From contig CADCRE010000034.1 in assembly GCA_902803785.1 (NCBI GenBank), positions 1 through 62,064 of the forward strand: DNA of 62,064 bases, given 5' to 3'. This DNA is from an uncultured Erysipelotrichaceae bacterium. Lineage in GTDB: Bacteria > Bacillota_I > Bacilli_A > Erysipelotrichales > Erysipelotrichaceae. Made by a program: the position numbers and the translations under genes. The notes below the pieces were generated by a model. That model saw only the letters and a program-made list of their open reading frames with translations, was not told the DNA's origin and searched no databases. Shown here in pieces: positions 3,477 through 41,655 of this stretch. Position 1 is the first letter of the stretch; each line of letters begins with the position of its first letter.

Positions 3477-4232
3477 ATGAAACGAAGCACACAACAGAGA
3501 CTGAATGAGATCAGCGAATACCTGATCCTGAATTCGAAAGCGACGACGAAAGAACTTGCGGAACTGACCGGAGTCTCTCCGGAGATGATCCGCAAGGACC
3601 TCGATGTTTTGGAACAGCACGGGGCCGGGATCGTGAGGGTCCATGGCGGTGCGGAACTGCGCGGAGACAACGTCTTGCCGTATTCTGCCAGGATCTATCA
3701 GAACAAGAGAGTCAAGGATGAACTCTGCCGCAGCGCATTAAACTACATCAATGACGGAGATACGGTCTTCATCGATCCGAGTACGACAGCTCTGCAGCTG
3801 GGCAGACTTCTGAAGGTCAAGAAAAACATCACGATCGTCACCAACTGTGTCGAACTGGTGCTGCTCGCAGCTGAGACCGATCATCAGATCATACTTCTGG
3901 GAGGAGAGTATTCCCGTTCCGGAAACCGGACTTTGGGAATGTTTGTACTGGATGCGATCAAGAAGATGAGATTCAATGTCGCAGTGTTCGGATCGGACGG
4001 ACTTTTGAACATGAACGGCGTCGGTACGACCAACGACGATGAGATCCTGGTCAACGAACTGGTCATGCAGCACAGCGGAAAGAATATCCTGATGGTCGAT
4101 TCCAACAAGTTCTTTCTGGAGAGCCGTTTTACCTATGCGAAATATGAGGATTTCGATGTGATGATCACAGATGCCTTCCCGGATGAGTATCGGGATATCG
4201 TCAAGATCAACGAGATCGTCATTACGGGATAA
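3477..4232 (+). CDS. DeoR family transcriptional regulator
   Basis: N-terminal HTH (RLNEISEYLILNSKATTKELAELTGVSPEMIRKDL) plus a DeoR C-terminal sugar-phosphate sensor fold. 251 aa. Confidence 0.85.
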   Translation: MKRSTQQRLNEISEYLILNSKATTKELAELTGVSPEMIRKDLDVLEQHGAGIVRVHGGAELRGDNVLPYSARIYQNKRVKDELCRSALNYINDGDTVFIDPSTTALQLGRLLKVKKNITIVTNCVELVLLAAETDHQIILLGGEYSRSGNRTLGMFVLDAIKKMRFNVAVFGSDGLLNMNGVGTTNDDEILVNELVMQHSGKNILMVDSNKFFLESRFTYAKYEDFDVMITDAFPDEYRDIVKINEIVITG

Positions 4233-4257
4233 GGAACAGATCATAAGATAACGGATC

Positions 4258-4285
4258 AGATCGGGGCAGACCCGATCTTTTTTTA
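4258..4285 (+). terminator. intrinsic terminator after the DeoR gene
   Basis: AGATCGGG (4258-4265) pairs with CCCGATCT (4271-4278), followed by a T7 run. Confidence 0.8.
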
Positions 4286-4530
4286 TTGGTCAAAGGTTTG
4301 ATAGAAAGGATTAATATTTCTTAAAATCAATATATTTATTAAAACAAAAGAAATGTTAGGTATAACTAATAAAAAGTTTTGTTTAAAAGGAACAGAAACA
4401 ATTAAAATTCTGTTTAAAATGAAAAATGTTCTACTTGTTTTCATAAACAAAAAAATATTGTTTTTGTTTTTTGAAATGAATATGATGAGGGTGTAAAAGC
4501 ATATCAACATAATTTGAAAAGAGGTAAGTC

Positions 4531-4926
4531 ATGGCACATCTGGTTCTGGCAACACACGCACACTTAGCTGAAAGTTATCTGGAGACCGCAAAGATGATCG
4601 GCGGTGAAAGTATGGTCAATGATGTCAAGACCTTCTGTATGACAGAAGGAAAGAACGTCGATGATTTTATGCAGGAAGTACAGGACTATGTCGACCTGGA
4701 TCCCGAAGGGGATTACTTTGTTATGGTCGACCTGTATGCGGCGAGCCCGTGTACGACCTGCGTCAGAGTGTTCGGCAGATATAATTATCGGTTAGTAACA
4801 GGTCTGAACCTCGGCATGCTTCTGGAAATCCTGGCATGCAAGGACACCTGTACTATAGAAGAACTGGAAGAAAAAGCGATCGAAGCAGGTAAGGGGGGCG
4901 TCGAAAGGTTTTATCTGCACGTATAG
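4531..4926 (+). CDS. PTS mannose-family EIIA domain protein (also DhaM-like)
   Basis: 131 aa. N-terminus MAHLVLATHAHLAES resembles the EIIA(Man)/DhaM phospho-His region. RBS AGAGGTAAG. Confidence 0.8.
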   Translation: MAHLVLATHAHLAESYLETAKMIGGESMVNDVKTFCMTEGKNVDDFMQEVQDYVDLDPEGDYFVMVDLYAASPCTTCVRVFGRYNYRLVTGLNLGMLLEILACKDTCTIEELEEKAIEAGKGGVERFYLHV

Positions 4927-4964
4927 TGAGTATCTTCTACTTCAAATAATCGAAAGGAGAAATT

Positions 4965-6593
4965 ATGTCAGTAATTCAAGCCATTCTCATCGCTCTGCTG
5001 TATTGCTTAGAGAAGAGTGAGATCTATGTACCGGCAACGTACAGCTTCCTGACGCTTCAGATGATCTCTGCTTTAACAGGTCTGATCCTGGGCGACCTCA
5101 AGACTGGTGTCATCGTCGGTGCAACTATTCAGCCTCTGTATCTGGCTCTGACTTCTGTCGGTGGCTCCGCTCCTGTTGATAAGGCAGCAGCCGGCACGAT
5201 TGCAACGTCAGCGGTCATCACACAGGGTATTTCCTTTGACCAGGCGCTGGTTCTGTCTTCTGTCGCAGCTTTGACTCTGTCCAACCTGCACATCCTGAAC
5301 AGAACATTGATGCTCTTTGTCACGCACTATGAAGAAGACTGCTGTAAGAAAGGCGATATCCCGGGTCTGACCAGAGGTATCTTCCTGTACGGTAACATTA
5401 TTCACTTATTAGCATTCGGCCTCCCGATGTTCATTATCCTCTATTGGGGAATTGGAGCTTTAGGCTTCCTGCAGAACGGTCTTCCACCTAGGATCGACAA
5501 TATCCTGAGCCTTATGGCCGGATTGATGCCTGCTGTCGGTTTTGCAATGACGATCGTCGTCATCGGCAAGGGCAATCTGATGCCGTTCTTCGCAGCCGGC
5601 TTCTTCTTTGCAAAGTATTCCGGATTAGGAACTGTTGCAGCTCTGCTCTTAGGTGCTTTACTTGCATGGCTGTACATGATCTTCACGAAGAAAGATGACG
5701 AAGGCAGTATCTTCGGTGACCTCTCCGTATTGACGAAGAAGGCTGACCTGAGCGGCCGTATCCTGGACAAGGCTGATCTGCGCAGAGCATGGACGAGATG
5801 GAGACTCTCTATCACCCATGTCGATAACGTAGAACGTCTGCAGGCTATGGGTGTCGCTTACACGATGTCTGCTGTATTGCCGAAACTCTATCCGAACAAC
5901 CCTGAACTCGTCGCTGACGGTCTGTCCCGTCATACTGACTTCTTCTGTACCGAGAACATGCTCGGCGGTATCATTCCGGGCGTCCTGGTATCCCTGGAAG
6001 AAGAAAGAGCGATCGGTATCAGGAAGGGTCTTCCTGAAGACGAACTGATCCCTGTCGAACTGATCGACTCCATCAAAGTCGGTACTATGGGACCTTTCGC
6101 CGGCATGGGCGATACTCTGAACTATGCTGTCATCAACCCGCTTCTGAATGCCTTCTTCATGGGCTTCGGTCAGCAGGGTTATGTCTGGGCTCCGTTCGTT
6201 CTGTCTCTTATCACTTATACTGTTTGGACGACTGAAGGTCGTTTGATGTACAACTTAGGTTACAACTTCGGTACACAGGCTGCTCAGCAGATCCTCGGTA
6301 GCGGCGCTTACCAGAAGATCGTTACCTTCTTCTCTATCCTCGGTCTGTTCGTCATGGGTGCATTCGCAGCTGACTTCGTATCTGTAAGATGTCTGGTCAA
6401 TATCCCGAAAGCTACAGATTTCATCTCTCTGCAGGAAGTACTGTTTGACGCGATCGTTCCGGGTCTCTTGCCATTCTGTGCACAGATGTTCACTTACTGG
6501 CACCTGAAGAAATACCACAACATGCTGAAGACGACGGGCGTCCTCGCTCTGATCTCTTTGGTTGCCGGTGGTTTGATGATCCTTGGTGCTTAA
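4965..6593 (+). CDS. PTS mannose/sorbose-family fused EIIC-EIID membrane component
   Basis: The N-terminal ~250 aa are EIIC-like TM bundles. After a KKDDEG linker comes the EIID hallmark LDKADLRRAWTRWRLS...ERLQAMGVAYTMSAVLPKLY. One uninterrupted 542-aa ORF. Confidence 0.85.
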   Translation: MSVIQAILIALLYCLEKSEIYVPATYSFLTLQMISALTGLILGDLKTGVIVGATIQPLYLALTSVGGSAPVDKAAAGTIATSAVITQGISFDQALVLSSVAALTLSNLHILNRTLMLFVTHYEEDCCKKGDIPGLTRGIFLYGNIIHLLAFGLPMFIILYWGIGALGFLQNGLPPRIDNILSLMAGLMPAVGFAMTIVVIGKGNLMPFFAAGFFFAKYSGLGTVAALLLGALLAWLYMIFTKKDDEGSIFGDLSVLTKKADLSGRILDKADLRRAWTRWRLSITHVDNVERLQAMGVAYTMSAVLPKLYPNNPELVADGLSRHTDFFCTENMLGGIIPGVLVSLEEERAIGIRKGLPEDELIPVELIDSIKVGTMGPFAGMGDTLNYAVINPLLNAFFMGFGQQGYVWAPFVLSLITYTVWTTEGRLMYNLGYNFGTQAAQQILGSGAYQKIVTFFSILGLFVMGAFAADFVSVRCLVNIPKATDFISLQEVLFDAIVPGLLPFCAQMFTYWHLKKYHNMLKTTGVLALISLVAGGLMILGA

Positions 6594-6659
6594 TCAAACT
6601 ATGATGTAGGATATCAAGCGCACCGAGGTGCGCTTGATATTTCAAAGAAAGGAAATCAC

Positions 6660-7673
6660 ATGAAGAAATTTCTAAATGATCCTGAAAACTTTATCGATGA
6701 AATGCTCGAAGGCTTATATGCCGCACATCCGGAAGACATCATGCCTGCAGAAGGTAATCTGAGATGTCTCGTAACGAAGCATAAAAAGCCGGGCAAGGTC
6801 GCGATCGCTACCGGTGGCGGAAGCGGACATCTTCCACTTTTCCTGGGTTATGTCGGAAAAGGCATGCTGGACGGATGCTCTGTCGGCGGTGTGTTCCAGT
6901 CTCCAAGCTCAGATGAGATGCTGACTGTCACAAAAGAGATCGACAACGGTGCCGGCGTATTATATATCTACGGTAACTACAACGGTGATATCTTCAACTT
7001 CACGATGGCGAAGGAAGAAGCCGATATGGATGACATCCGTGTCGAACAGGTCATCGCCGGTGAAGATGTGGCCAGCGGTCCGAGAGTCAAAGAAGGTGAA
7101 AAGAACACCAGAAGAGGTGTCGCAGGTATCTTCTTTGTCTATAAGGTCGCGGGTGCTGCCGCAAACGAAATGAAGACCCTGGACGAAGTCAAGGCTCTGG
7201 CAGAAAAGGTCGCAGGACAGACTGCTACGATGGGTGTTGCCTTCACTCCTTGTACTGTCCCACGCATCGGCCATCCAAGCTTCACGATCGGTGATGACGA
7301 GATGGAGATCGGTATGGGTATCCATGGCGAACAGGGTATCAGAAGAGGCAAACTGCTTCCGGCTGACGAGATCGTCGAAGAGATGCTGGTACCGGTACTG
7401 GATGACCTTTCTCTGAAAGAGAACGATGAGGTCGCTGTCCTGATCAACGGTCTCGGTGCGACTCCGTTAGAGGAACAGTATCTGGTCAACCGCAAGGTCA
7501 ATGAGATCGTGACCGGCAGAGGACTGAAGACATACAGGACTTATGTCGGAGAATATGCAACTTCTCTGGAAATGTCCGGCCTTTCTATCTCTGTCCTGAA
7601 ACTGGATGATGAGATCAAACATTATCTGGATGCGGAAGCAGATGCGATCATGTTCAAACAGTTCGCAAAATAA
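6660..7673 (+). CDS. dhaK: dihydroxyacetone kinase subunit DhaK
   Basis: Motifs GGGSGHLP, GNYNGDIFNF and GMGIHGEQG match the DhaK substrate-binding subunit. 337 aa. Confidence 0.9.
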   Translation: MKKFLNDPENFIDEMLEGLYAAHPEDIMPAEGNLRCLVTKHKKPGKVAIATGGGSGHLPLFLGYVGKGMLDGCSVGGVFQSPSSDEMLTVTKEIDNGAGVLYIYGNYNGDIFNFTMAKEEADMDDIRVEQVIAGEDVASGPRVKEGEKNTRRGVAGIFFVYKVAGAAANEMKTLDEVKALAEKVAGQTATMGVAFTPCTVPRIGHPSFTIGDDEMEIGMGIHGEQGIRRGKLLPADEIVEEMLVPVLDDLSLKENDEVAVLINGLGATPLEEQYLVNRKVNEIVTGRGLKTYRTYVGEYATSLEMSGLSISVLKLDDEIKHYLDAEADAIMFKQFAK

Positions 7674-7682
7674 GGAAAAAAT

Positions 7683-8291
7683 ATGTTTACAGTAGCAGAA
7701 TTATTTGCCGAATGGGCAGATATCTTCAAAAACAATATCGAATATCTTACAGAACTGGATTCCGTAGCAGGTGATGCGGATCTTGGTCTGGTCATGAACG
7801 ACGGTTTCTCCAAGACGAGCGAATTCGTGAAAAACAGCGAAGAAAAAGACGTCGGAAAACTGCTGTTCCAGGCAGGCAAGTACTTCAACAGCGTCGCTTC
7901 TTCTTCCATGGGGACTCTGCTTTCCGCAGGATTCATGAATGCAGGAAAGAAGCTTCGCGGCAAGGAAGAACTGGCCGAGAACGACTGCTACACCATCCTT
8001 CAGGGGATCGGTGAAGGCGTTCAGAACATCGGTCAGGCCAAGGAGGGCGAAAAGACCTTCCTGGACGGCATGCTGCCGGCAGTCAGAGCACTGGAAAACA
8101 TGACCGATCTGAAGGCTGACCTGAACAAGGCATGTGAAGCGGCCGCTGAGGGCGTCGAAACAGCCAAGAATCTGGTCGGTAAACACGGAAGGATCGCTTT
8201 CAGAGGGGAAGCTTCCGTCGGTATCGTCGACCCGGGATCTGTTGTTGCGAAACTCCTGGTCGAAGGAATGAAAAATCTCGCAGATCGTTAA
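7683..8291 (+). CDS. dhaL: dihydroxyacetone kinase subunit DhaL (ADP-binding)
   Basis: 202 aa. LTELDSVAGDADLG motif of the Dak2/DhaL domain. Starts 9 nt after dhaK. Confidence 0.88.
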   Translation: MFTVAELFAEWADIFKNNIEYLTELDSVAGDADLGLVMNDGFSKTSEFVKNSEEKDVGKLLFQAGKYFNSVASSSMGTLLSAGFMNAGKKLRGKEELAENDCYTILQGIGEGVQNIGQAKEGEKTFLDGMLPAVRALENMTDLKADLNKACEAAAEGVETAKNLVGKHGRIAFRGEASVGIVDPGSVVAKLLVEGMKNLADR

Positions 8292-8296
8292 TCAGA

Positions 8297-8557
8297 ATGC
8301 AAAAAGGATCTTCTAACAAAATACTTCTGGCTGTAGAAGTCATCGTCCTGACTCTGATCGTCTCTTACTTCATATCAGACGGTTTTACGCTGACCCTGCA
8401 TCAGGCGCTCGGCTTTGACGGATCGGACAACCTGAACAAGACCCTCTGGGGAAGCGGGCTCGATCCGAAGAGAGCGCTGATCTCACTGACTGTCATCGTC
8501 GTATTCTTTGGCTTCCTGTACTGGAAGAATCGCAAGAAAGGCGGTAACGGGAAATGA
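8297..8557 (+). CDS. small membrane protein (2 TM), unknown function
   Basis: 86 aa with two hydrophobic spans and a basic tail. ATGA overlap with the next gene, and in line with the operon. Confidence 0.5.
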   Translation: MQKGSSNKILLAVEVIVLTLIVSYFISDGFTLTLHQALGFDGSDNLNKTLWGSGLDPKRALISLTVIVVFFGFLYWKNRKKGGNGK

Positions 8558-9591
8558 AGAAAGTCAGCAGCAGAGAACTGTCTTTCCCAAGTTCCAACGG
8601 AGTCGATCAGATCCATGTGCTGGCATACGTACCGGCAGATGAGATCAAGGGATATGTACAGATCGTTCATGATACATATGAGCACATCGGCATCTATGAA
8701 GATGTCATGAAGAGCTTTGCGTATCGGGGATATCTGGCGTTCGGTCATGACCATATGGGACACGGCGGATCAGTAAGCAAGGAAGAAGATCTGGGAAAAC
8801 TCAAAGGTAACAATAACTTTCAGAATCTCATAAGCGACACGAACCTGGCCTTTCTGCTCGTCTTCAATGAATATCCTCCAAAGGAGAAAAAAACATATAA
8901 GACTACAGTTGTCGAAAGAAAAGGACTCAAAAAGACAACGAAAGAATTGGAACTGGTAAAACCTCCGTTGCACGCAATCATAGGCGTTGGCTTCGGTTCC
9001 GCGATCGTCAGAAACTACGCAGTGATCTATAACGATATCAACTGCGTGTGTCTGTGCGGAGACAAGGGATTCCCGATCAACGGGAAACTGACGTTGATGA
9101 AATGCAATGCCGAGATCAGAAAACACGGAGAGGAAGCATATTCTGATAAGATCCCGGCCCTGATGGAAAAGAACTACCTGAAGGGGAAAGATGCGGATTA
9201 CAGATTCGACTGGAAGACTTCGAACAGAGAGCTGATCGAGATCTTCCGGAACGATCCGTCCTGCAACTTCGAGTATGATCTGAAGTATCTGAAGACCATC
9301 CTCGAGATGGAAAACAGCCTCGGACTGAGCGAATGGGCACAGGCCTATCCGCCGTACCTGGCGACCTATGTGGTCTCGGGTGAACAGGATCCGGTCAGCG
9401 ACAACGGACGGGAAGTCCACGTCATGCTGAAGTACTTCCAGCAGATGCGCAAGAAGAATCTGTTCTTCAAGATCTATAAGGGATACCACAATCTGTTTTT
9501 TGAAGATTGCCGCAACGAATTGATAAATAATCTGATCACATTAATGGAAGCTGTGGAAAAACAGCAATACGGAAACGTTGAGAATACATAA
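8554..9591 (+). CDS. alpha/beta-hydrolase-fold (lysophospholipase-like) protein with a degenerate nucleophile elbow
   Basis: GHDHMGHGGS, SGEQDPVSD and GYHNLFFE blocks align by eye to monoglyceride-lipase-type hydrolases. The GxSxG position reads GVGFG. A Lys-rich insertion and AT-richer codons are present. Confidence 0.6.
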   Translation: MKKVSSRELSFPSSNGVDQIHVLAYVPADEIKGYVQIVHDTYEHIGIYEDVMKSFAYRGYLAFGHDHMGHGGSVSKEEDLGKLKGNNNFQNLISDTNLAFLLVFNEYPPKEKKTYKTTVVERKGLKKTTKELELVKPPLHAIIGVGFGSAIVRNYAVIYNDINCVCLCGDKGFPINGKLTLMKCNAEIRKHGEEAYSDKIPALMEKNYLKGKDADYRFDWKTSNRELIEIFRNDPSCNFEYDLKYLKTILEMENSLGLSEWAQAYPPYLATYVVSGEQDPVSDNGREVHVMLKYFQQMRKKNLFFKIYKGYHNLFFEDCRNELINNLITLMEAVEKQQYGNVENT

Positions 9592-9609
9592 GGAGGAGAA
9601 GAGAGTAAT

Positions 9610-10470
9610 ATGTTAGTTTCAATGTTAGAAATCATGCAGCATGCGAAAAAGGGCGGCTACGGCGTCCTGGCACCGAACGTATTCAATGAGGATACTGTCA
9701 GAGTCTGTCTGGAAGCTGCTGTTGAACTGGATTCCCCGATCATCATCGATGTTCTGGAAAGCAACACCAAGGATCTCGTATCTTTCGGTAAGATGATCCG
9801 TCTGCTCGCTCACGAAGTGAGAGTACCTGTCGCGATCAACCTGGACCATGGCCAGAACGACGCTGCCTGCATGAAGGCGATCTATGGTGGATTCACCGGA
9901 ATCATGGTCGACAGATCTTTCCTGCCGTTTGAAGAGAACGCAAGAGAAGTCAGAAAGTTCAAGGAACTCTGCGCTCCGATCGGTGTCACTGTCGAAGCTG
10001 AATTCGGTCAGATCGCTGAAGGTGAAGAATACCTTGAAAAACGTGAAGAATACCTGACTGACCCGGAAATGGCCAAGAAGTTCGTCGAATTGTCCGGCTG
10101 TGACTGTCTGGCAGTTTCCATCGGTGAAGCTCACGGTGAATACGTCACCGAACCTGACATCGATTTCGAAAGACTGCAGAAGATCAAGGAAGCAGTCGAT
10201 GTACCTCTCGTATTCCACGGCGGTTCCTGGTCCGGTTTCGAAAACATCGCTAAGTGTTGCCAGATCGGCTGCCAGAAAGTAAACATGGGTTCTCATGCTT
10301 ACCAGAACGGTGTTGACAAGTACATGGAAGAACGTGCTAAAGGCAATCCAGATACGACTTCCGCAAGAACAGGCGGCAACATCATGTGGGCTGGTTACAA
10401 AGAGATCGTCATCAAGTACATGAAGTGCTGCGGTTCCGAAGGCAAGAACTGGTTAAAGATCGTAGACTAA
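9610..10470 (+). CDS. class II ketose-bisphosphate aldolase (FbaA/GatY/KbaY family)
   Basis: 286 aa with INLDHG and LVFHGGS metal/phosphate motifs. Strong RBS AGGAGG. Confidence 0.88.
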   Translation: MLVSMLEIMQHAKKGGYGVLAPNVFNEDTVRVCLEAAVELDSPIIIDVLESNTKDLVSFGKMIRLLAHEVRVPVAINLDHGQNDAACMKAIYGGFTGIMVDRSFLPFEENAREVRKFKELCAPIGVTVEAEFGQIAEGEEYLEKREEYLTDPEMAKKFVELSGCDCLAVSIGEAHGEYVTEPDIDFERLQKIKEAVDVPLVFHGGSWSGFENIAKCCQIGCQKVNMGSHAYQNGVDKYMEERAKGNPDTTSARTGGNIMWAGYKEIVIKYMKCCGSEGKNWLKIVD

Positions 10471-10502
10471 TACAAGAAGCAATACAAAAGGAGGGCTTTA
10501 CA

Positions 10503-11009
10503 ATGGGCAAGATTGTAAATGTTAGAATTGATGGAAGATTGATCCACGGTCAGGTATGTACTCAGTGGGTCCATCAGGTCGGTGCCAGGAAGATCTTTAT
10601 CATCGATGATATCATCGCAAAAGATGCGTTCCTGTCACAGATCTGTGTCATGGCATCGCCGGCAGGCACGACTCTGGAGTGCATTTCCACTGCAGATGCC
10701 GCAAAGCGCTGGAACGAGAATGAACTGGGTACAAATGATCCGATCTTCATCCTGTTCCAGACTCTGGATATGGCCATCAAGGCCTGGGATGCGGGATTCC
10801 ACTATCCGACTCTGAATTTCGGTACGACCCTGAACAAGGCCGGAATGATCCCGGTCGGTGTCGGTTCCATCCAGATGAAACCGGAACAGGCTCCGAAACT
10901 TCAGGAGATGCAGAACGGCGGTTGTGTGATCACGTTCCAGGTCACCCCGGGCGATCCGTGTTCTACCTGGGATTCTGTCAGAGACAAGAATTTCCCTGAT
11001 GTAAAGTGA
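10503..11009 (+). CDS. PTS mannose-family EIIB component
   Basis: ORF 10386..11009 trimmed to the ATG at 10503 behind AAGGAGG. Has the VRIDGRLIHGQV phospho-His motif. Confidence 0.88.
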   Translation: MGKIVNVRIDGRLIHGQVCTQWVHQVGARKIFIIDDIIAKDAFLSQICVMASPAGTTLECISTADAAKRWNENELGTNDPIFILFQTLDMAIKAWDAGFHYPTLNFGTTLNKAGMIPVGVGSIQMKPEQAPKLQEMQNGGCVITFQVTPGDPCSTWDSVRDKNFPDVK

Positions 11010-11017
11010 GGTAAATC

Positions 11018-11317
11018 ATGAACTATAAAGATTTGGTATGGGTCAGAAAACCGACAGCGGAACAGGCTGACCTGCTGAACAGCCAGCCGACCTGGGACCA
11101 CGAAGCCGGTGTCTGGGATGCGCATTACGACGAGAGACAGGAAACGTTCCTGGTCATCGAAGGCGAAGCATCCATCACGACGACCGAAGGACGTGTCTAC
11201 CGTTTCCAGGCAGGCGACCTTGTCACGGCAGCCAGAGATTTCGACTGTGTGTGGGAAGTTCCGAACTACATCAAGAAGCATTACATCTTCAACGCCAAAG
11301 AAGTGGAATGCGAATAG
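11018..11317 (+). CDS. small cupin-domain protein (DUF861-like)
   Basis: 99 aa single beta-barrel pattern (ETFLVIEGEASI...YRFQAGDLV). Starts 8 nt after EIIB. Confidence 0.6.
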   Translation: MNYKDLVWVRKPTAEQADLLNSQPTWDHEAGVWDAHYDERQETFLVIEGEASITTTEGRVYRFQAGDLVTAARDFDCVWEVPNYIKKHYIFNAKEVECE

Positions 11318-11340
11318 TTAGCTGAACAAGCGCTGAAACA

Positions 11341-11392
11341 AAAGGCATATAGGTGTTCCCCCAGTTAGTAATCACTTATATGCCTTTCTCTT
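11341..11392 (+). terminator. terminator-like long hairpin ending the PTS/Dha cluster
   Basis: AAAGGCATATAGGTG (11341-11355) pairs with CACTTATATGCCTTT (11373-11387), then CTCTT. Confidence 0.6.
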
Positions 11393-11425
11393 ACGTTGTA
11401 TAATTAATACCGGAGGAATTGAAGT

Positions 11426-11983
11426 ATGAAAGCCAAGATAGAAGGACTGACTGCCAAAGGCAACAATGTCTATGAAGATAATAAAGGAAGGACGTACCTG
11501 GCTGATCACAAGAACAGAGTTCTATATGCGATCGGCAAGGACAGCAAGAACCAGATGTCGTTCTATCAGCAGCGTCATCTGATCCCGATGATCCTTCTGG
11601 TACTGGTCGGATTCTATGTGAACTGGTATCTTGCGGTGGGACTTGCGTTAGCTTCGATCGTCGTTCTGGAATATCTGTACAATCAGGTCTTCCTGAAATC
11701 CCTGGTCAAGTACGAGAATATCGATATCCCGTCAGAACCGACTTTAAAAGACAAACTCGTGGAAGCTCCGCGCAAGAAGATCATCGCCGTACTGGTGATG
11801 AGTACTCTGTTGCCGATCCTTCTGGTCGCCAATCTGGTCGGAACGGTAAAATCGTTTGACAATCTCGTGAACGATCCGAACAATATGATCCTACTGGTCG
11901 TAAGTATCGCACTGATCGTATATGCGGTGAGATATGTCTACAGTTCGGTCGTAGCGTTGAGCAAACAGAATCAGAAAGCGTAA
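11426..11983 (+). CDS. hypothetical membrane protein
   Basis: 185 aa with about 4 hydrophobic spans. RBS GGAGGAAT. Monocistronic between two terminators. Confidence 0.6.
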   Translation: MKAKIEGLTAKGNNVYEDNKGRTYLADHKNRVLYAIGKDSKNQMSFYQQRHLIPMILLVLVGFYVNWYLAVGLALASIVVLEYLYNQVFLKSLVKYENIDIPSEPTLKDKLVEAPRKKIIAVLVMSTLLPILLVANLVGTVKSFDNLVNDPNNMILLVVSIALIVYAVRYVYSSVVALSKQNQKA

Positions 11984-11992
11984 GGACAGATG

Positions 11993-12019
11993 CCGATGTG
12001 AATACATCGGTTTTCTTTT
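11993..12019 (+). terminator. intrinsic terminator
   Basis: CCGATGT (11993-11999) pairs with ACATCGG (12004-12010), followed by TTTTCTTTT. Confidence 0.75.
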
Positions 12020-15358: not shown

Positions 15359-17311
15359 TTATACGAAGGATGATCCTCCGGTCACGATCCAGCATGCGAG
15401 CATCGCCGCGATCAGAGCCCCGGTATAGGCCCTTCCGGTCTTGCGGTAACACCAGGTACATAATACCGAGAAGAAGAGGACCTGCGGAACGAATAGGATC
15501 AGGATGGACATGAACGGTCCGCCGAAGGTGGAACCGAAGAGGACGTCAGCACCCGGTCCGATCCCCAGGAAGAACGGGATGTATTCCAGCAAGACGATCA
15601 GAAGGACACCTCCGGCCATCAGAAGGAAGTTGTAGAGCCAGTTGCGAAGGAAGGCGGAGACGCCTTTTTCGTAGGTGGATCTGATACGCATATCTCTCAT
15701 AACCTTGGAGTTGTTCAGAAGGTAGAACAGTGCAAAGAACGGGATGTATACCGCAAACTGTACGATACGGATCGAATTGAATTCGCGGAAGAACGGCCAG
15801 ATGAAGCGCAGATCCAGATCGAAGATCCTGGAGTAAAGGAAGTTCATCAGGTAGACCATAGCGACAGCATAGAATGCCAGAAGCAGGGATAAGAGCCAGA
15901 CAGGGAAACTGAATCTCTCTTTTTCGATGCCGGCTTTCTTATTCTTGGCGGATGTGATGAGATTACTGATACACATGATGAGGATCAGCAGGAGATACCA
16001 GCTTAAGAAGCCGTTTCCGACTGTCATGCGGAAGATATTTTCCGGTAAAGGAAGCAGGGCATGTCCCAGCTGGGTCATGAACGGGAAGGAGAGACCGGAC
16101 AGCAGCATCGTGATCAGAGTACCGGAAACTCTCGATCTTCCTTTCAGCATCCCTTCTTTGGATGGAAGTTCCTGAACGACGTTCTTGAACAGCTTCGTCT
16201 CCAATAAGATATTCATCAGCGGGAACATCGCAAACAGTACCGCCAGCATCGCTCCCAATACGAGGTATTCCTTGATCTTGGCGTTGATCTGAGAATGGTC
16301 GAAATCGTTCGGAAGTTCCAGTGCGGAATCGAGCCAGTCCAAAGCCGTCTCCAGTCCATGCAGATGATGCGTCGTCAGACGGTGATTGGTATTCAGCAGT
16401 TCTATCCTTCTGGCACTGCCGTCATTGAACGTACCGTACGTCGTATTCCAGGCGGCCATGTCGGCGGTCGTACCCAGGAATTCATATCGCAACGGTGTCT
16501 TCAGCAGGTTATCCGTGACGTTGAGCTGATAGTCCCGGAAGTAGGAGAATTCGTCATATTTCGCCTGAAGAAGGAGGACGTTGTTGAAATGATACTTCGA
16601 TGTATCGTAGACGTCATCGGTAAACAGTTCACCGCACTGCAGGACGATGGCCTTCGGTTCGATAGCCGTACCGGACCAGGCAGCCGCAACGCTCCAGCTG
16701 GACCAGGTACCCATGGAGTGGCCGGAGACCGCCATGCGCGATGCATCGACATAATCCAGTTTTGACAGATATTCATAGGCGATCGATCCTCCGCAGGAGG
16801 AATCGGTGATCGCATTCCCGTGATCGTCTTTCGAATAGTGATCGTTGAAGAAAGACAGATTCGAGAAGTTCATCAGGATACGGTAACGGATCGTGCTTCC
16901 GATCGAAGAATAGGTCCCGTCCGCTTCCGAATCGTTTCCGTAGTTGACAGAGACCTTGTGATCGACATATCCCCGTTTCAGAAGGCCGACCGTCGTGGAT
17001 CCGTGTCCGTATTCATCCAGACACAGGACGACCGCTCCTCTTCTTGCGAGCTCGATCGCATAGGCCGCACAGGTCTCGTGATCGTTCTGATAGCCGTGCA
17101 GAAGCAGGACAGCGGGAGCCTTATTGGATGCGGTCGCATCCTTCGGACGGTAAAGCTTGTAGGTCATGAATCCCTCATCGACAGGGATCGTTCCGTCGCT
17201 GATCTCGATCCTGCCGTTATCTCTCTGAATGCGGTCTGCCGCAAACATCAGGCCGCACGAAAGAAGAAGCAGGACGATCAGTACCACAAAAGACCGTTTG
17301 GTTTTCTTCAT
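15359..17311 (-). CDS. membrane-anchored alpha/beta hydrolase fused to a polytopic C-terminal membrane domain
   Basis: N-terminal signal anchor. Hydrolase core with LLLHGYQND and nucleophile elbow SGHSMGT. The C-terminal ~300 aa contain about 7-8 TM helices. Confidence 0.7.
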   Translation of the reverse strand: MKKTKRSFVVLIVLLLLSCGLMFAADRIQRDNGRIEISDGTIPVDEGFMTYKLYRPKDATASNKAPAVLLLHGYQNDHETCAAYAIELARRGAVVLCLDEYGHGSTTVGLLKRGYVDHKVSVNYGNDSEADGTYSSIGSTIRYRILMNFSNLSFFNDHYSKDDHGNAITDSSCGGSIAYEYLSKLDYVDASRMAVSGHSMGTWSSWSVAAAWSGTAIEPKAIVLQCGELFTDDVYDTSKYHFNNVLLLQAKYDEFSYFRDYQLNVTDNLLKTPLRYEFLGTTADMAAWNTTYGTFNDGSARRIELLNTNHRLTTHHLHGLETALDWLDSALELPNDFDHSQINAKIKEYLVLGAMLAVLFAMFPLMNILLETKLFKNVVQELPSKEGMLKGRSRVSGTLITMLLSGLSFPFMTQLGHALLPLPENIFRMTVGNGFLSWYLLLILIMCISNLITSAKNKKAGIEKERFSFPVWLLSLLLAFYAVAMVYLMNFLYSRIFDLDLRFIWPFFREFNSIRIVQFAVYIPFFALFYLLNNSKVMRDMRIRSTYEKGVSAFLRNWLYNFLLMAGGVLLIVLLEYIPFFLGIGPGADVLFGSTFGGPFMSILILFVPQVLFFSVLCTWCYRKTGRAYTGALIAAMLACWIVTGGSSFV

Positions 17312-38233: not shown

Positions 38234-39685
38234 ATGGAGTTTTTAAAGAGCGTCTGGATGTTCTTCCAAACGAACATCCTCACTCAGCCGGCCTTCTTCG
38301 TAGGTTTCCTGGTTCTGATCGGTTACCTGCTGTTAAAGAGACCGTTCTATCAGGCATATGCCGGATTTGTTAAGGCGACTGTAGGTTACCTGATCCTCAA
38401 CGTCGGTTCCGGCGGTCTGGTCAGCAACTTCCGTCCTATCCTGGCGGGTTTGAACCAGAGATTCAACCTTAACGCTGCAGTCATCGACCCATACTTCGGT
38501 CAGTCTGCTGCAACTGCTGCTCTGGAAGCTGTCGGACGTACGACTTCCCTGGTCTTCTTAGGCCTGTTGGTTGCGTTCTTCCTGAACATCTTACTGGTAG
38601 CTTTAAGAAAAGTTACGAAGATCCGTACTTTATTCATTACCGGTCATATCATGGTCCAGCAGTCCTCAACAGCTATGTGGATGACAGTCTTCTGCTTCCC
38701 GCAGCTTCAGGACGTTACAGCTGTCATTCTGATGGGTGTCCTGCTCGGTGTATTCTGGGCTGTATCCGCTAACCTGACAGTTGAACCGACTCAGAGACTG
38801 ACAGACGGCGGCGGCTTCGCTGTCGGTCATCAGCAGATGTTCGGTGTCTGGCTCGTCAACAAACTCGCTCCGAAGATCGGCGGCAAGGATGCGAAGAGCC
38901 TCGACGAACTCGAACTCCCAGGCTGGCTGTCCATCTTCTCTGACAACGTCGTTGCGACCAGTACTCTGATGCTCCTGTTCTTCGGTATCCTGTTAAGCGT
39001 TTTAGGCCCGACATTCCTGAAGGAAGGCCTCGGCATCAAGTTCAACAGCTTCCCGTTCTATGTCATGACGACTGCATTCAACATGGCAGTCTACCTCAGC
39101 ATCCTGCAGCTCGGTGTCCGTATGTTCGTTGCTGAACTGACGGAATCCTTCACAGGTATCTCTGAGAAACTGTTACCTGGTTCTGTACCTTCTGTCGACT
39201 GTGCCGCTACTTACGGTTTCGGTTCCGCAAACGCTCCGATCATCGGTTTCTTCTTCGGTGCTTTAGGTCAGTTCCTGGCTATCATCGGCTTAGTCGTATT
39301 CAAGAGCCCGATCCTGATCATCACAGGTTTCGTGCCGGTATTCTTCGATAACGCTACATTCGCCGTCTTCGCAAACAAGGCATCCGGCTTCAAGGCTGCT
39401 GCGATCCTGACATTCTGTTCAGGCATCATCCAGGTCCTCGGCGGTGCAGTCTGCGCAAGCGTCTTCCAGACTTACCAGTATGGCGGATGGCACGGAAACT
39501 TTGATATGGATACTGTATGGCTCGTCGGTGGCTTACTGCAGAAATACGCAGGCATCATCGGTTACGTCGTATGCCTGGTCGCTCTGCTGATCATCCCGCA
39601 GCTCCAGTACAGAAAGGATCCGGAACACTACTTCCAGGTCGTTGAAGACTGGGATGCCTACAAGGCAGCTAAGGGGATCGAATAA
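38234..39685 (+). CDS. ulaA: PTS ascorbate-family EIIC (UlaA/SgaT)
   Basis: 483-aa polytopic protein. N-terminus FLKSVWMFFQTNILTQPAFFVGFLVLIGYLLL is typical of UlaA. Followed by ulaB and ulaC. Confidence 0.88.
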   Translation: MEFLKSVWMFFQTNILTQPAFFVGFLVLIGYLLLKRPFYQAYAGFVKATVGYLILNVGSGGLVSNFRPILAGLNQRFNLNAAVIDPYFGQSAATAALEAVGRTTSLVFLGLLVAFFLNILLVALRKVTKIRTLFITGHIMVQQSSTAMWMTVFCFPQLQDVTAVILMGVLLGVFWAVSANLTVEPTQRLTDGGGFAVGHQQMFGVWLVNKLAPKIGGKDAKSLDELELPGWLSIFSDNVVATSTLMLLFFGILLSVLGPTFLKEGLGIKFNSFPFYVMTTAFNMAVYLSILQLGVRMFVAELTESFTGISEKLLPGSVPSVDCAATYGFGSANAPIIGFFFGALGQFLAIIGLVVFKSPILIITGFVPVFFDNATFAVFANKASGFKAAAILTFCSGIIQVLGGAVCASVFQTYQYGGWHGNFDMDTVWLVGGLLQKYAGIIGYVVCLVALLIIPQLQYRKDPEHYFQVVEDWDAYKAAKGIE

Positions 39686-39745
39686 TCATCGTTCTTAAAC
39701 GGAATACGGATTCCGATAAGACAATAACAATGGAGGTAATATAGT

Positions 39746-40039
39746 ATGTTAAAAGTTATTGCAGCCTGTGGAAATGGCATGGGTTCCAGCCAGATGATCA
39801 AAATGAAGATCACTAAGGTCTTCAAGAAACTCGGTGTCGATGTTCAGGTCGATCATAACAGTGTCGGTGCAGCTACCAGCATGGCATCCAACTATGACGC
39901 TGTCTTCGTATCTCAGAACTTCGTCAACAACTTCGCCAATGCAGCGGGCAGAGGCGTCAAGATCATCGGTTTAAAGAATCTGCTGTCTGAACAGGAGATC
40001 GAAGAAAAGATCGTTGAAGCAGGCCTGGATAAGAAATAA
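39746..40039 (+). CDS. ulaB: PTS ascorbate-family EIIB (UlaB/SgaB)
   Basis: 97 aa. MLKVIAACGNGMGSS contains the active-site Cys context. Confidence 0.88.
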   Translation: MLKVIAACGNGMGSSQMIKMKITKVFKKLGVDVQVDHNSVGAATSMASNYDAVFVSQNFVNNFANAAGRGVKIIGLKNLLSEQEIEEKIVEAGLDKK

Positions 40040-40081
40040 TACCTGCTATAGTGCTTCTAACGATTGAGAAATCGATCAAAG

Positions 40082-40113
40082 GCGCTATCCCGTGAAAGGG
40101 ATAGCGCTTTTTT
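40082..40113 (+). terminator. intrinsic terminator between ulaB and ulaC
   Basis: GCGCTATCCC (40082-40091) pairs with GGGATAGCGC (40098-40107), followed by a T6 run. Confidence 0.8.
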
Positions 40114-40121
40114 GTTATAAT
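40113..40121 (+). promoter_or_regulatory. extended -10 promoter element (TGtTATAAT)
   Basis: TGTTATAAT directly follows the terminator T-run, about 37 nt before the ulaC ATG. Confidence 0.5.
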
Positions 40122-40157
40122 GAAGGCAGTAAAATATTTTAAATAATAGGAGGAAAT

Positions 40158-40619: not shown

Positions 40620-40620
40620 T

Positions 40621-41652: not shown

Positions 41653-41655
41653 AAC

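Follow-up and report, generated by a model that had tools for sequence, protein, structure and literature searches.

The genes at positions 3477–11317 of the window (the whole stretch of DNA analysed, 62,064 nucleotides) may encode a DeoR-controlled pathway of ketose catabolism in which the sugar is cleaved first and DhaKL then phosphorylates the free triose. We give this reading about half of our confidence. A mannose-family PTS (EI, HPr, EIIA, EIIB, and EIIC-EIID) would import the sugar as a monophosphate, the class II aldolase would cleave it to a triose phosphate and a free triose, and DhaK-DhaL would phosphorylate the latter. EIIA(Man) would feed two acceptors, EIIB and DhaL-bound ADP, with both phosphates coming from PEP; the ketose would probably be converted into two triose phosphates whose phosphate is all PEP-derived. 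Two sub-variants can be distinguished. In a1, a ketose 1-phosphate would give DHAP and glyceraldehyde, and DhaKL would be a triokinase. In a2, a ketose 6-phosphate would give glyceraldehyde-3-P and dihydroxyacetone (Dha), and DhaKL would be a true Dha kinase. What we infer is the substrate, the step order, the transfer from EIIA to DhaL, and what the hydrolase-like protein, the cupin, and the two membrane proteins do.

The model builds on what was observed of the genes present, their catalytic motifs and co-conservation, and the phylogenetic pattern. The original prediction of a hybrid PTS, DhaKL, and aldolase gene set was confirmed call by call in Pfam and NCBIfam scans (Table 1). It had treated ten genes as a single cluster. 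The genes are indeed co-directional and tightly spaced, with intergenic gaps of −4 to 66 bp except for 298 bp 3′ of the DeoR gene, but the DeoR gene is probably a separate transcription unit, judging from the hairpin and the promoter-like site that follow it, and an eleventh gene, for a 185-aa membrane protein, belongs to the set. The sequence around the promoter-like site is AT-rich and contains repeats of TGTTTAAAA-type motifs. Direct repeats were observed upstream of the EIIA gene at 4373–4392 and 4404–4423, and no cre site was found in this upstream region. The 185-aa protein had no Pfam match; in loci L001, L002, and L009–L011 its homologues (23–29% identity) lie beside the cluster, and unnamed ORFs of 171–193 aa lie upstream of EIIA in L012, L013, and L015. 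From this co-conservation and the hairpin behind the gene, the unit probably ends at about 12011. The true EIIB start is most likely 10503 (MGKIVNVRIDGRLIHGQ) rather than the ORF start at 10386, because the orthologues are 166–170 aa long. The DeoR protein, probably the operon's repressor, scored under every NCBIfam equivalog cut-off with GlpR, SrlR, and AgaR as top matches, and its orthologues travel with the cluster in L001, L002, and L009–L015.

Table 1. Features of the cluster and its flanks, with the match or motif behind each call.
Feature	Position	Strand	Basis
DeoR-family transcriptional regulator, 251 aa	3477..4232	+	HTH_DeoR and DeoRC domains
Terminator-like hairpin after DeoR gene	4258..4278	+	8-bp stem, 5 G-C pairs, then T run; consensus match only
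Promoter-like site 5′ of EIIA gene	4298..4327	+	TTGATA-18-TAAAAT, 10/12 positions matched; predicted
EIIA, mannose family, 131 aa	4531..4926	+	PF03610 (EIIA-man), E=3.6e-18
Fused EIIC-EIID membrane permease, 542 aa	4965..6593	+	EII-Sor residues 3-235, EIID-AGA residues 267-539
DhaK, substrate-binding subunit of two-subunit dihydroxyacetone-type kinase, 337 aa	6660..7673	+	Dak1, E=1.7e-117
DhaL, nucleotide-binding subunit, 202 aa	7683..8291	+	Dak2, E=5.8e-33
Small two-helix membrane protein, 86 aa	8297..8557	+	two hydrophobic segments, residues 4-34 and 58-78 (hydropathy)
Alpha/beta-hydrolase-fold protein without nucleophilic serine, 345 aa	8554..9591	+	Hydrolase_4, partial match
Class II (zinc) ketose-phosphate aldolase, 286 aa	9610..10470	+	PF01116 (F_bP_aldolase), E=4e-75
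EIIB, mannose family, 168 aa	10503..11009	+	PTSIIB_sorb, E=8.6e-33
Small Cupin_3 (EutQ-like) protein, 99 aa	11018..11317	+	PF05899, E=2e-17
Multi-pass membrane protein, 185 aa	11426..11983	+	hydrophobic segments; co-conserved with cluster
Terminator-like hairpin at unit end	11992..12011	+	8-bp stem, then T-rich tail; consensus match only

The neighbourhood comparison that had been proposed as a check bore the prediction out. Nine species of the genome collection and several metagenome contigs carry the gene set, with at least two arrangements of the genes, and this recurrence supports a real co-conserved functional unit rather than a chance assembly. The operon occurs in gut and rumen bacteria of several bacterial orders. 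In type A loci (Erysipelotrichales) DhaKL lies within the operon, and in type B loci (Lachnospiraceae, Oscillospiraceae, and one MAG labelled Actinomycetes) it follows the regulator; DhaK identity between the two types is only 47–53%. EIIC-EIID orthologues in nine species showed 53–93% identity. The distant variants L092/L093 and L016 keep the PTS, DhaKL, and aldolase and add HPr and EI, which adjoin DhaKL in L016 and L092. L091, also a distant variant with the PTS, DhaKL, and aldolase, has a second DhaKL pair, and one of its pairs follows a GntR regulator. Operons that combine a mannose PTS with an aldolase form a wider family, to which the cluster belongs. The original prediction knew neither of its two step orders as a described pathway, and no description of the cluster was found in the searchable literature.

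The best solved relatives of EIIA are ManX IIA structures, and His9 aligned with their phosphorylated His10. EIIB carries the active-site motif RIDGRLIHGQ. EIIA is the sole EIIA(Man)- or DhaM-like gene of the window; it scored as a sugar EIIA and not as DhaM, and neither NCBIfam nor further window scans gave a match to the DhaM model. The phosphodonor domain of DhaM shares the EIIA(Man) fold, and the missing DhaM is therefore no gap: the operon's single EIIA(Man) probably also donates phosphate to DhaL. No homologues of PfkB, FGGY, GatZ, DhaM, HPr, or EI were found in the 62-kb window (the kinases were searched by tblastn), so the predicted lack of a conventional sugar-phosphate kinase holds for the whole window; in four related Erysipelotrichales loci, a ribokinase-like PfkB does occur immediately downstream. 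The significance that had been attached to this lack has to be reduced, because the E. coli gat and aga operons encode no kinase either and the absence is not diagnostic by itself.

DhaK and DhaL were both under the NCBIfam equivalog cut-offs, and their best solved relatives were the PTS-dependent DhaK of L. lactis (3ct4) and the PTS-dependent DhaL of E. coli (2btd), respectively. DhaK keeps the catalytic motifs GSGH, NYxGD, and GIHGE and the His, Asp, and His of the covalent-binding mechanism, and the D-x4-D-x-D motif of DhaL (DSVAGDAD) is conserved. These PTS-dependent best matches, like the window's lack of another kinase, DhaM, HPr, or EI, count for cleavage ahead of DhaKL. The closest DhaK relatives (67–71% identity) adjoin ABC sugar transporters without an aldolase or other enzyme (L003, L006) and by implication act on a small free carbonyl sugar; we favour the early cleavage because of this setting and the near-canonical DhaK. 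Another of these DhaKs, in L004 beside an unrelated Gat-type PTS, a FucA-like aldolase, and HPr, points the same way. The substrates of the FucA-like family are ketose 1-monophosphates, E. coli DhaK accepts Dha and D-glyceraldehyde, and mammalian triokinase is a DAK homologue. Against this reading stands the subfamily signature GHLPLF, found where others have GHEPxH. It sets this DhaK subfamily apart from every characterised DhaK, so the substrate may be something other than a triose.

The aldolase was below all NCBIfam cut-offs and kept the zinc-ligand motifs LDHG, AHG, and HGGS. In the tree, the DhaKL-linked aldolases form a monophyletic clade nested among PTS-linked aldolases, with a signature of Arg253, Lys54, Glu in place of Thr178, and no Lys184. 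The proximal phosphate site has kept HGGS, Asn, and Thr/Ser, and two of the three 6-phosphate ligands have changed (Ser49 to Leu, Arg259 to Tyr). In FBA, GatY, and AgaY, the residue aligned with Arg253 is the 'DPR' arginine that contacts the 6-phosphate, and its equivalent in H. pylori FBA is Arg280′, a 6-phosphate ligand (PMC10665668). Some 50 DhaKL-clade aldolases were inspected and had Arg253 conserved, including all 38 motif-readable clusters among 42 database clusters at ≥53% identity. Twelve more distant PTS-linked relatives and YdjI showed no Arg at this position; the exception is P0237 ('DGR'), which has a Zn-ADH and aldolase context with only about 1.2 kb visible upstream. Lys/Arg54 follows the same clade pattern, and the Arg-less relatives and YdjI lack both residues. 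The correlation of Arg253 with DhaKL linkage is thus strong but not perfect. Sister PTS-aldolase operons encode aldehyde-handling enzymes in place of DhaKL or sugar-phosphate kinases: L019/L071 have Zn-ADH, aldolase, and AKR, L098 has an Fe-ADH, and L097 has a tartronate-semialdehyde-reductase-like enzyme, a glycerol-kinase-like FGGY protein, and a G3P-oxidase-like enzyme. The presence of such enzymes beside related aldolases is a further reason to favour cleavage before the DhaKL step. YdjI and IolJ provide a precedent for it, as PF01116 aldolases able to cleave monophosphates.

The 86-aa membrane protein gave no Pfam or NCBIfam match, and a gene of 80–105 aa occupies its position in L001, L002, L013, L091, and L092. 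The hydrolase-like protein had been called degenerate, correctly so: the nucleophile elbow GHSMG of its closest solved relative, 5o7g, is GVGFG here. The elbow reads G-x-G-x-G in 13 of 13 full-length cluster relatives aligned, with the triad Asp and His kept. This protein evolves fast (29–45% identity where DhaK shows 67–81%), and its gene is always immediately 5′ of the aldolase gene and is missing only in L012. It is a probable non-hydrolytic partner protein, possibly of the aldolase. The cupin is 50–71% identical across type A and type B loci, found in L091, and missing in L092/L093. It is possibly an isomerase or epimerase, which the earlier statement that no isomerase is encoded had overlooked.

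A serious but distinctly less probable alternative is that phosphorylation occurs twice before cleavage. The PTS would deliver a ketose 6-phosphate, DhaK would bind its open-chain hydroxymethyl-ketone end, DhaL would transfer a PEP-derived phosphate to C1, and the aldolase would split the 1,6-bisphosphate into DHAP and glyceraldehyde-3-P; DhaKL would stand in for the kinase (PfkA, LacC, or FruK type) that the gat, aga, and lac pathways use. This order stays alive because the DhaKL-linked aldolases carry the distal-phosphate arginine, near-specific to their clade with P0237 excepted, and the Lys/Arg54 pattern and the intact proximal site agree with it. Mannose-family PTSs usually phosphorylate at C6 (the known exception, L-sorbose, is phosphorylated at C1), bisphosphate aldolases serve in gat and aga, the closest known operons, and DhaKL stands beside HPr and EI in L016 and L092. 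On the other hand, we know of no DAK-family enzyme that phosphorylates a sugar phosphate, the 67–71% identical DhaKs occur with ABC transporters, a setting that rules out a phosphorylated substrate, two of three 6-phosphate ligands are lost, and the sister clusters point to free aldehyde products. Cleavage before the DhaKL step has its own difficulties. Arg253 has been regained or retained in the clade, which also has Lys54; a1 leaves this without explanation and a2 would explain it. However, a2 would require a class II aldolase that releases free Dha, for which no natural precedent is known to us, and the HGGS, Asn, and Thr/Ser phosphate-site residues persist. The usual C6 phosphorylation and the scoring of EIIA as a sugar EIIA also count against it. 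Both orders of steps had been put forward in the original prediction; the data fit both and prove neither.

It is improbable that the substrate has a distal anionic group, as in a keto sugar acid, with DhaKL serving another step or a second substrate. The PTS would then phosphorylate next to the keto group, and the aldolase would give DHAP and an acidic aldehyde, like IolJ or YdjI. Arg253 and Lys54 would bind the carboxylate, sugar-acid PTSs of the mannose family exist (for example the gluconate and glucosaminate systems), and YdjI and IolJ are PF01116 aldolases with acidic monophosphates as substrates. However, the strictly co-conserved DhaKL would be left without a substrate, the carboxylate-binding YdjI lacks Arg253, and no reductase or glycerate-kinase-type enzyme for the acidic aldehyde is encoded. 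Slightly more doubtful still is a role of DhaKL outside the PTS-sugar pathway, as an independent Dha-detoxifying module sharing the operon and EIIA or as a sensor or co-regulator. In E. coli, both subunits serve as co-regulators that act on DhaR, and DhaKL follows the regulator gene in type B and the GntR gene for one L091 pair. The strict linkage to the aldolase clade across two gene orders and several bacterial orders and the retention of all catalytic residues argue against such a role, and we know of no partnership of DeoR or GntR regulators with DhaK/DhaL.

Among known systems, the E. coli aga (GalNAc/GalN) and gat (galactitol) operons resemble the cluster in a DeoR-type repressor, a PTS (mannose family in aga), a PF01116 class II ketose-bisphosphate-type aldolase, and the lack of a dedicated sugar-phosphate kinase. 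They differ in that their aldolases need GatZ or KbaZ, housekeeping PfkA gives the second phosphate, and a dehydrogenase or deacetylase/deaminase is present; the window cluster has DhaKL instead and no GatZ homologue, and its aldolase, which falls into another clade, shares only 30–32% identity with GatY and AgaY. The DhaKLM systems of E. coli and Lactococcus lactis share DhaK and DhaL as two separate subunits, whose catalytic and Mg-nucleotide motifs are conserved, and an EIIA(Man)-fold protein encoded alongside. The cluster differs from them in having no dedicated DhaM, glycerol dehydrogenase, DhaR, or DhaS, in a DhaK only 40–41% identical to those of E. coli and L. lactis (GHLPLF versus GHEPxH), and in the embedding of its DhaKL genes in a sugar PTS operon. 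The L-sorbose operons (Klebsiella and Lacticaseibacillus casei sor) also use a mannose-family PTS, which phosphorylates the ketohexose at C1, and the L. casei operon presumably includes a class II aldolase-like gene, sorG. Their SorE and SorD dehydrogenases convert sorbose-1-P to glucitol-6-P and DhaKL is absent, whereas the window cluster has no dehydrogenase. The E. coli ydj set (YdjI aldolase, YdjH kinase, YdjJ/YdjL Zn-dehydrogenases, YdjG aldo-keto reductase) is similar in its DeoR regulator (YdjF) and in a PF01116 aldolase acting on a ketose 1-monophosphate, and resembles the sister clusters L019/L071. It differs by MFS transporters and a PfkB kinase in place of the PTS, the lack of DhaKL, and a YdjI without Arg253.

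Under a1, the logic would be that of mammalian ketohexokinase, aldolase B, and triokinase TKFC, where ketose-1-P gives DHAP and glyceraldehyde and a DAK-family kinase follows. In the window route the PTS would supply the first phosphate, for which the mammalian route uses ATP, a class II (zinc) aldolase takes the place of the class I enzyme, and the kinase, probably PEP-driven, consists of two separate subunits. Under a2, the chemistry would be identical to a bypass in E. coli, in which FSA converts ketose-6-P to Dha and glyceraldehyde-3-P and the PEP-dependent DhaKLM then phosphorylates Dha (PMC7767278). FSA is a class I enzyme of transaldolase fold unlinked to dhaKLM, whereas the window aldolase is class II and genetically linked to DhaKL.

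The cluster is a PTS-dependent sugar catabolic operon that brings known families together in an undescribed combination; full-text searches, with subscription journals outside their scope, found no description of it. The genes called in the original prediction between 3477 and 11317 were confirmed by ORF listing and profile scans, and an eleventh gene, TM185, followed the cupin gene. That prediction had also described ten co-directional, tightly spaced genes. All of them lay on the + strand, with gaps of -4 to 66 bp from EIIA to the cupin, but the DeoR gene is probably transcribed apart. A terminator-like hairpin and a promoter-like site were located between DeoR and EIIA, and another terminator-like hairpin followed TM185. 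From these two hairpins and the promoter-like site, which are consensus matches only, the transcription unit probably spans 4531-11983, with DeoR on its own unit. Promoter, terminator, and operator calls are pattern matches throughout. Matches to the catabolite-responsive element (cre) upstream of the operon were at chance level, and none fell in the promoter region. The EIIB ORF formally opens at 10386; the start used here was set by the orthologues and the N-terminus MGKIVNVRIDGRLIHGQ.

Features of the cluster and of other parts of the window
Feature	Coordinates	Strand	Remarks
RuvX ORF, 231 aa	338-1033	-	TTG start; RuvX domain at residues 95-228
DeoR regulator	3477-4232	+	ORF listing, profile scans
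Terminator-like hairpin	4258-4278		consensus match
Promoter-like site	4298-4327		consensus match
EIIA(Man), 131 aa	4531-4926	+	ORF listing, profile scans
EIIC (EII-Sor)-EIID fusion, single 542-aa protein	4965-6593	+	ORF listing, profile scans
DhaK	6660-7673	+	ORF listing, profile scans
DhaL	7683-8291	+	ORF listing, profile scans
86-aa protein, two hydrophobic segments	8297-8557	+	
Hydrolase_4-like protein, 345 aa	8554-9591	+	profile scans
Class II aldolase, 286 aa	9610-10470	+	profile scans
EIIB(Man)	10503-11009	+	profile scans, start set by orthologues
Cupin_3 protein, 99 aa	11018-11317	+	profile scans
TM185, 185-aa multi-pass membrane protein	11426-11983	+	
Second terminator-like hairpin	11992-12011		consensus match
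650-aa protein	15359-17311	-	weak N-terminal alpha/beta-hydrolase matches (Hydrolase_4, PETase-like)
Glycogen/starch synthase, 607 aa	19600-21423	+	Glyco_transf_5 and Glycos_transf_1; C-terminal SCP2 sterol-carrier-like domain, residues 521-598
Second PTS operon, six genes	38234-43991	+	
EIIC-GAT	38234-39685	+	second PTS operon
EIIA_2	40158-40619	+	second PTS operon
362-aa protein	40564-41652	+	second PTS operon; no Pfam match
AraD/FucA-like Aldolase_II	41656-42351	+	second PTS operon
Xylose-isomerase-like TIM barrel	42269-43204	+	second PTS operon
HAD phosphatase	43194-43991	+	second PTS operon

Both flanks of the cluster were unrelated to it: genes for an amino-acid ABC transporter and for RuvX precede it, and those for an aldehyde dehydrogenase and a class III aminotransferase come after it. 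The listed start of the RuvX ORF is probably too far upstream; otherwise the ORF carries an N-terminal extension without assignment. Further along the window, a 650-aa protein gave just weak hydrolase matches, and the fusion of a glycogen/starch synthase with an SCP2-like domain is unusual. The second PTS operon is unrelated to the cluster and looks like an ula/sgb-type ascorbate or pentulose cluster.

Inside the PTS proteins, His9 of EIIA aligned with the phosphorylated His10 of E. coli ManX IIA, and EIIB showed the canonical histidine motif RIDGRLIHGQ; separate IIA and IIB domains with phosphorylatable histidines are characteristic of the mannose family (TC 4.A.6). IIC and IID were both present as EII-Sor and EIID-AGA domains of one protein, and the orthologues shared this fusion. 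The four PTS components scored far below every NCBIfam equivalog or subfamily cut-off for Man, Sor, Lev, Aga, Gfr, Dga, and Gnt specificity, so the sugar is not readable from homology.

DhaK retained the covalent-binding histidine (GIHGE) and the His/Asp acid-base pair (GSGH, NYNGD) in alignment with the E. coli and L. lactis enzymes. Among solved structures it was closest to PTS-dependent enzymes, that of L. lactis (3ct4, E = 5e-76) and that of E. coli, whereas the ATP-dependent Citrobacter enzyme was much further away (1e-40). DhaL matched the PTS-dependent DhaL of E. coli best and kept the Mg-ADP aspartates, DSVAGDAD aligning with E. coli DREIGDAD (D-x4-D-x-D magnesium-nucleotide motif). 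DhaK showed only 40-41% identity to characterised enzymes, and both DhaK (375.9 versus 406.25) and DhaL (126.8 versus 138.3) stayed under the curated equivalog cut-offs (TIGR02363, TIGR02365). The window DhaK falls in a distinct subfamily that reads GGGSGHLPLFLGY where others have GGGSGHEPxH. This GHLPLF subfamily comprised all cluster-linked DhaKs together with DhaKs 67-71% identical to the window protein in other contexts. In Christensenella (L003, 5221-11660) and Flexilinea (L006/L007, 4838-12701), a DhaK-DhaL pair of this subfamily immediately followed the genes for ribose-type ABC sugar transporters; a LacI regulator was also present, and no further catabolic enzyme. In the Flexilinea loci DhaK was preceded by a 160-164-aa protein that matched Ureidogly_lyase (AllA family) weakly. 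Zophobihabitans entericus (L004, CP050253.1, 4909-12019) combined EIIA_2, IIB, EIIC-GAT, a PRD regulator, a FucA/AraD-like Aldolase_II, DhaK (68% identical to the window DhaK), DhaL, and HPr, and is an independent PTS, aldolase, and DhaKL cluster made from non-homologous parts. About 3 kb away, the same locus held a second, canonical-looking DhaKL pair beside a glycyl-radical enzyme.

DhaM, HPr, Enzyme I, and a second EIIA(Man) were all missing from the 62-kb window. No model identified a DhaM, a tblastn search of the window with E. coli DhaM gave nothing, and blastp showed no similarity of EIIA to DhaM; by sequence the operon's EIIA is a sugar-type EIIA(Man), not DhaM. The DhaM domain that phosphorylates DhaL-bound ADP has the EIIA(Man) fold, and the operon encodes a single EIIA, which makes this protein the obvious candidate donor to both DhaL and EIIB. 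We therefore infer that the single EIIA(Man) probably donates to DhaL as well as to EIIB. HPr and EI accompanied DhaKL in two comparison loci (L016 and L092), and HPr did so in Z. entericus. These neighbours and the PTS-dependent best matches give indirect support to a PTS protein, and not free ATP, as the phosphoryl donor of DhaL. A DhaM may be encoded elsewhere in the genome, and so may a housekeeping phosphofructokinase that could act on the PTS product.

Conservation was analyzed by tblastn of the eleven window proteins against all fetched loci and by inspection of the called genes on metagenome contigs. The linkage of PTS, aldolase, and DhaKL, whose conservation the original prediction had proposed as a check, recurred in four arrangements. 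DhaK was only 47-53% identical between types A and B. Because the linkage survived both rearrangement and long divergence, it is the strongest available evidence of joint function. Within type A loci, identity to the window protein was 67-81% for DhaK, 70-76% for the aldolase, 55-73% for EIICD, 50-71% for the cupin, 48-66% for DhaL, 29-45% for the hydrolase-like protein, and 23-29% for TM185. The closest genome in the species collection was an Erysipelotrichaceae MAG from buffalo rumen (L008), with 93% EIICD identity. No near-identical DNA was found in E. coli genomes and plasmids, so the locus is neither enterobacterial nor plasmid-borne.

Gene orders of DhaKL-linked clusters and of sister PTS-aldolase clusters lacking DhaKL
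Arrangement	Loci	Gene order
Type A	window; L001/L009/L010 (Dielma fastidiosa and relatives); L002; L008; L011 (Merdibacter)	DeoR-(TM185)-IIA-IICD-DhaK-DhaL-small-hydrolase-like-aldolase-IIB-cupin
Type B	L012-L016 (Anaerosacchariphilus hominis, a Lachnospiraceae, Oscillospiraceae MAG, MAG labelled Actinomycetes)	IIA-IICD-small-hydrolase-like-aldolase-IIB-cupin-DeoR-DhaK-DhaL
HPr-EI-LevR	L092/L093 (metagenome contigs)	IIA-IICD-DhaK-DhaL-small-hydrolase-like-aldolase-IIB-HPr-EI-LevR, without cupin
Two DhaKL pairs	L091 (metagenome contig)	GntR-DhaK-DhaL-IIA-IICD-DhaK-DhaL-small-hydrolase-like-aldolase-IIB-Aldolase_II-cupin
Sister	L094/L095	IIA-IIB-IICD-aldolase-Zn-ADH
Sister	L019/L071	LevR-IIA-Zn-ADH-IIB-IIC-IID-aldolase-AKR
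Sister	L018	aldolase and histidine phosphatase
Sister	L097 (4000-14560)	Gat-type PTS-aldolase-tartronate-semialdehyde-reductase-like-G3P-oxidase-like flavoprotein-DUF1667-FGGY kinase
Sister	L098	aldolase-Zn-ADH-Fe-ADH-2-hydroxyacid dehydrogenase
Sister lineage	L099	amidohydrolase and dehydrogenase with aldolase

Individual loci varied in detail. Two of the carriers are cultured strains, Dielma fastidiosa DSM 26099 (L009) and Anaerosacchariphilus hominis NSJ-68 (L013). In L016 a PRD regulator, a second IIB, HPr, and Enzyme I preceded the DhaKL pair. On the L091 contig (2064-11400), the DhaKs of the two pairs were 67% and 45% identical to the window DhaK and both of the GHLPLF type; an extra Aldolase_II gene sat between EIIB and the cupin, and a GntR regulator replaced DeoR. 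The MAG labelled Actinomycetes bacterium (L015, 9527-17211) had the type B order, with EIICD 53% and DhaK 47% identical to the window proteins, and its aldolase was the closest genome-collection relative of the window aldolase (78%). This mosaic of identities points to recombination or horizontal transfer inside the cluster, or else to mis-binning of the contig.

The aldolase kept the class II zinc ligands and catalytic Asp (LDHG, AHG, HGGS). Its best matches reached 208 bits against curated cut-offs of 343-443, and the broad cbbA model gave 195.9 against 215.6. Identity was 30-34% to GatY, AgaY, YdjI, and Bacillus-type FBA, 38-48% to a large PTS-linked set, and 54-84% to the DhaKL-linked aldolases. 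The latter formed one clade inside the PTS-linked set, away from GatY, AgaY, and FBA, in a neighbour-joining tree without bootstrap that serves as a rough guide. A tblastn search of the window detected no homologue of GatZ, the GatZ/KbaZ-type partner.

Three residues bind the 6-phosphate in H. pylori FBA, namely Ser49, Arg259, and, from the partner subunit, Arg280', which is Ala in class II sulfofructose-phosphate aldolases (PMC10665668). Ser/Thr49, Arg/Lys259, and Arg280' from the partner subunit were taken as the distal phosphate site (PMC10665668). The window aldolase has the Arg280' equivalent (Arg253) and Lys54, with Leu for Ser49 and Tyr for Arg259. Arg253 aligned with the 'DPR' arginine (AgaY Arg257), in a motif that reads 'SAR' here and 'GAR' or 'GIR' in the orthologues. 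It was present in every DhaKL-clade aldolase inspected, including all 38 readable among 42 database clusters of at least 53% identity, and missing from YdjI and from all but one of the 12 more distant PTS-linked relatives checked. That one, P0237, has an arginine at the aligned position ('DGR') in a Zn-ADH and aldolase context on a contig that reaches only about 1.2 kb upstream. Lys/Arg54 followed the same clade pattern. The window protein and its whole clade carry the distal arginine that a YdjI-type ketose-1-monophosphate aldolase lacks. The clade has also lost Lys184 (HGxYK), whose equivalent binds the 1-phosphate in FBAs, and Thr178 (GTAHG) was replaced by Glu, Met, Ser, or Ala. Residues 226-227 were Ser-His (KVNMG-SH-AY) in the window aldolase and its five closest database relatives, against Thr-Asp/Glu (KVNMG-TD-AY) in the rest of the clade and in class II aldolases generally. 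In other class II aldolases the Asp equivalent to position 227 contributes to the discrimination of fructose from tagatose.

The hydrolase-like protein, already suspected to be degenerate, is related to the Hydrolase_4 esterase family (closest structure 5o7g). Gly took the place of the nucleophile Ser in the window protein and in each of the 13 full-length cluster relatives in the alignment, leaving no G-x-S-x-G elbow, while the triad Asp and His persisted. The HG oxyanion motif reads HD, and an insertion of about 30 residues precedes the elbow. A homologue search, used for the serine check only, gave just 9 matches because the protein evolves fast. Its gene was always immediately upstream of the aldolase gene and missing only in L012. 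Speculatively, it may be a non-hydrolytic partner, possibly of the aldolase, loosely like GatZ/KbaZ. The cupin was a typical Cupin_3 protein without a metal site.

None of the sister clusters without DhaKL encoded a sugar-phosphate kinase. As proof that their aldolases act on monophosphates this absence is insufficient, because the E. coli gat and aga operons also have no kinase. The aldehyde-handling enzymes are the better argument, as several sister clusters encode enzymes that would be able to dispose of a free aldehyde. The gene content of L097, whose class II aldolase lacks the arginine, suggests cleavage of a ketose 1-phosphate followed by a complete rescue route from glyceraldehyde through glycerol and G3P to DHAP.

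Our preferred explanation, to which we give an even chance, is a mechanism in which the PTS would deliver a ketose monophosphate, the aldolase would cleave it first, and DhaKL would rescue the free triose with phosphate that DhaL draws from the EIIA(Man) shared with EIIB. The PTS product may be a 1-phosphate, as it is for L-sorbose; the aldolase would then release DHAP and glyceraldehyde, and DhaKL would act as a triokinase. This requires no unprecedented step and agrees with the contexts of DhaK and with the aldehyde-handling modules found in sister clusters, but it leaves the gain of Arg253 and Lys54 unexplained; taken alone it is rather unlikely, though the likeliest single route. Cleavage of a ketose-6-P to glyceraldehyde-3-P and free Dha, with DhaKL as a true Dha kinase, would explain why a distal anion site was gained and Lys184 lost, and would also account for the C6 specificity canonical among mannose PTSs and for the substrate that DhaK naturally uses. 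It does not explain why the proximal phosphate-site residues are still largely present, and a class II aldolase with a non-phosphorylated donor has no known precedent; we consider this the least probable of the three routes.

The third route reverses the order: DhaKL would add a 1-phosphate to the ketose-6-P from the PTS, and the aldolase would cleave the bisphosphate. The aldolase residues are explained in this way, and the logic matches the gat, aga, and lac pathways, but DhaKs that share 67-71% identity with the window protein work beside ABC transporters, where their substrates are not phosphorylated, and no DAK-family kinase is known to act on a sugar phosphate. We find it doubtful, placing it behind the triokinase route and ahead of Dha release. 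The same doubt applies to its form as a branched relay, where one EIIA(Man) would feed EIIB and DhaL-ADP and both phosphates of the bisphosphate would come from PEP without an ATP-dependent kinase. All three routes use the same proteins with the same stoichiometry, two PEP per hexose. It is slightly short of an even chance that one enzyme has an unprecedented activity, as in Dha release or bisphosphate formation, and other explanations take up the remaining probability.

In Dielma, Merdibacter, and L002, a ribokinase-like PfkB gene immediately follows the cluster and overlaps the TM185 gene there. It was considered as the missing sugar-phosphate kinase and rejected. The protein is not 1-PFK/LacC-like, is only 39-44% conserved between species, and was absent from the window, type B loci, and L091-L093; PfkB was therefore not counted as a core component, though it could matter in those species. 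Phenotypes were likewise set aside as substrate evidence: Merdibacter massiliensis and Traorella massiliensis use tagatose and 5-ketogluconate, not sorbose, which would bear on the substrate only if these strains carry the cluster.

If confirmed, this would be a sugar catabolic route of gut and rumen Firmicutes (Dielma, Merdibacter, Anaerosacchariphilus, Lachnospiraceae, Oscillospiraceae) in which a dihydroxyacetone-kinase pair is wired into a sugar PTS. Whichever scenario holds, at least one thing would be new: a bacterial counterpart of the step that triokinase performs in mammals, a naturally occurring class II aldolase that cleaves ketose 6-phosphates and sets dihydroxyacetone free, or the first DAK-family enzyme to act on a sugar phosphate. 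EIIA(Man) would probably have two acceptors in all of these cases. The imported sugar may be one of the rare ketoses, for instance tagatose, sorbose, or allulose; these are used as sweeteners, and the route would then bear on the consumption of sweeteners by gut microbes. Beyond this, the cluster is an anchor for a larger family of mannose-PTS-plus-aldolase operons that lacks annotation. Its members have interchangeable 'triose rescue' modules, which current pipelines label generically as 'fructose-bisphosphate aldolase' and 'dihydroxyacetone kinase'.

Among described operons, E. coli aga and gat, which share the DeoR regulator, PTS, and class II aldolase, come closest, together with the L-sorbose operons. 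Unlike the aga and gat tagatose aldolases, the window aldolase belongs to a distinct clade and has no GatZ/KbaZ beside it. The closest described kinase system is DhaKLM, from which the cluster differs by having no dedicated DhaM, a distinct DhaK subfamily, and scores below the curated cut-offs. In pathway logic it comes closest to the mammalian aldolase B and triokinase route, or to the FSA-plus-DhaKLM bypass.
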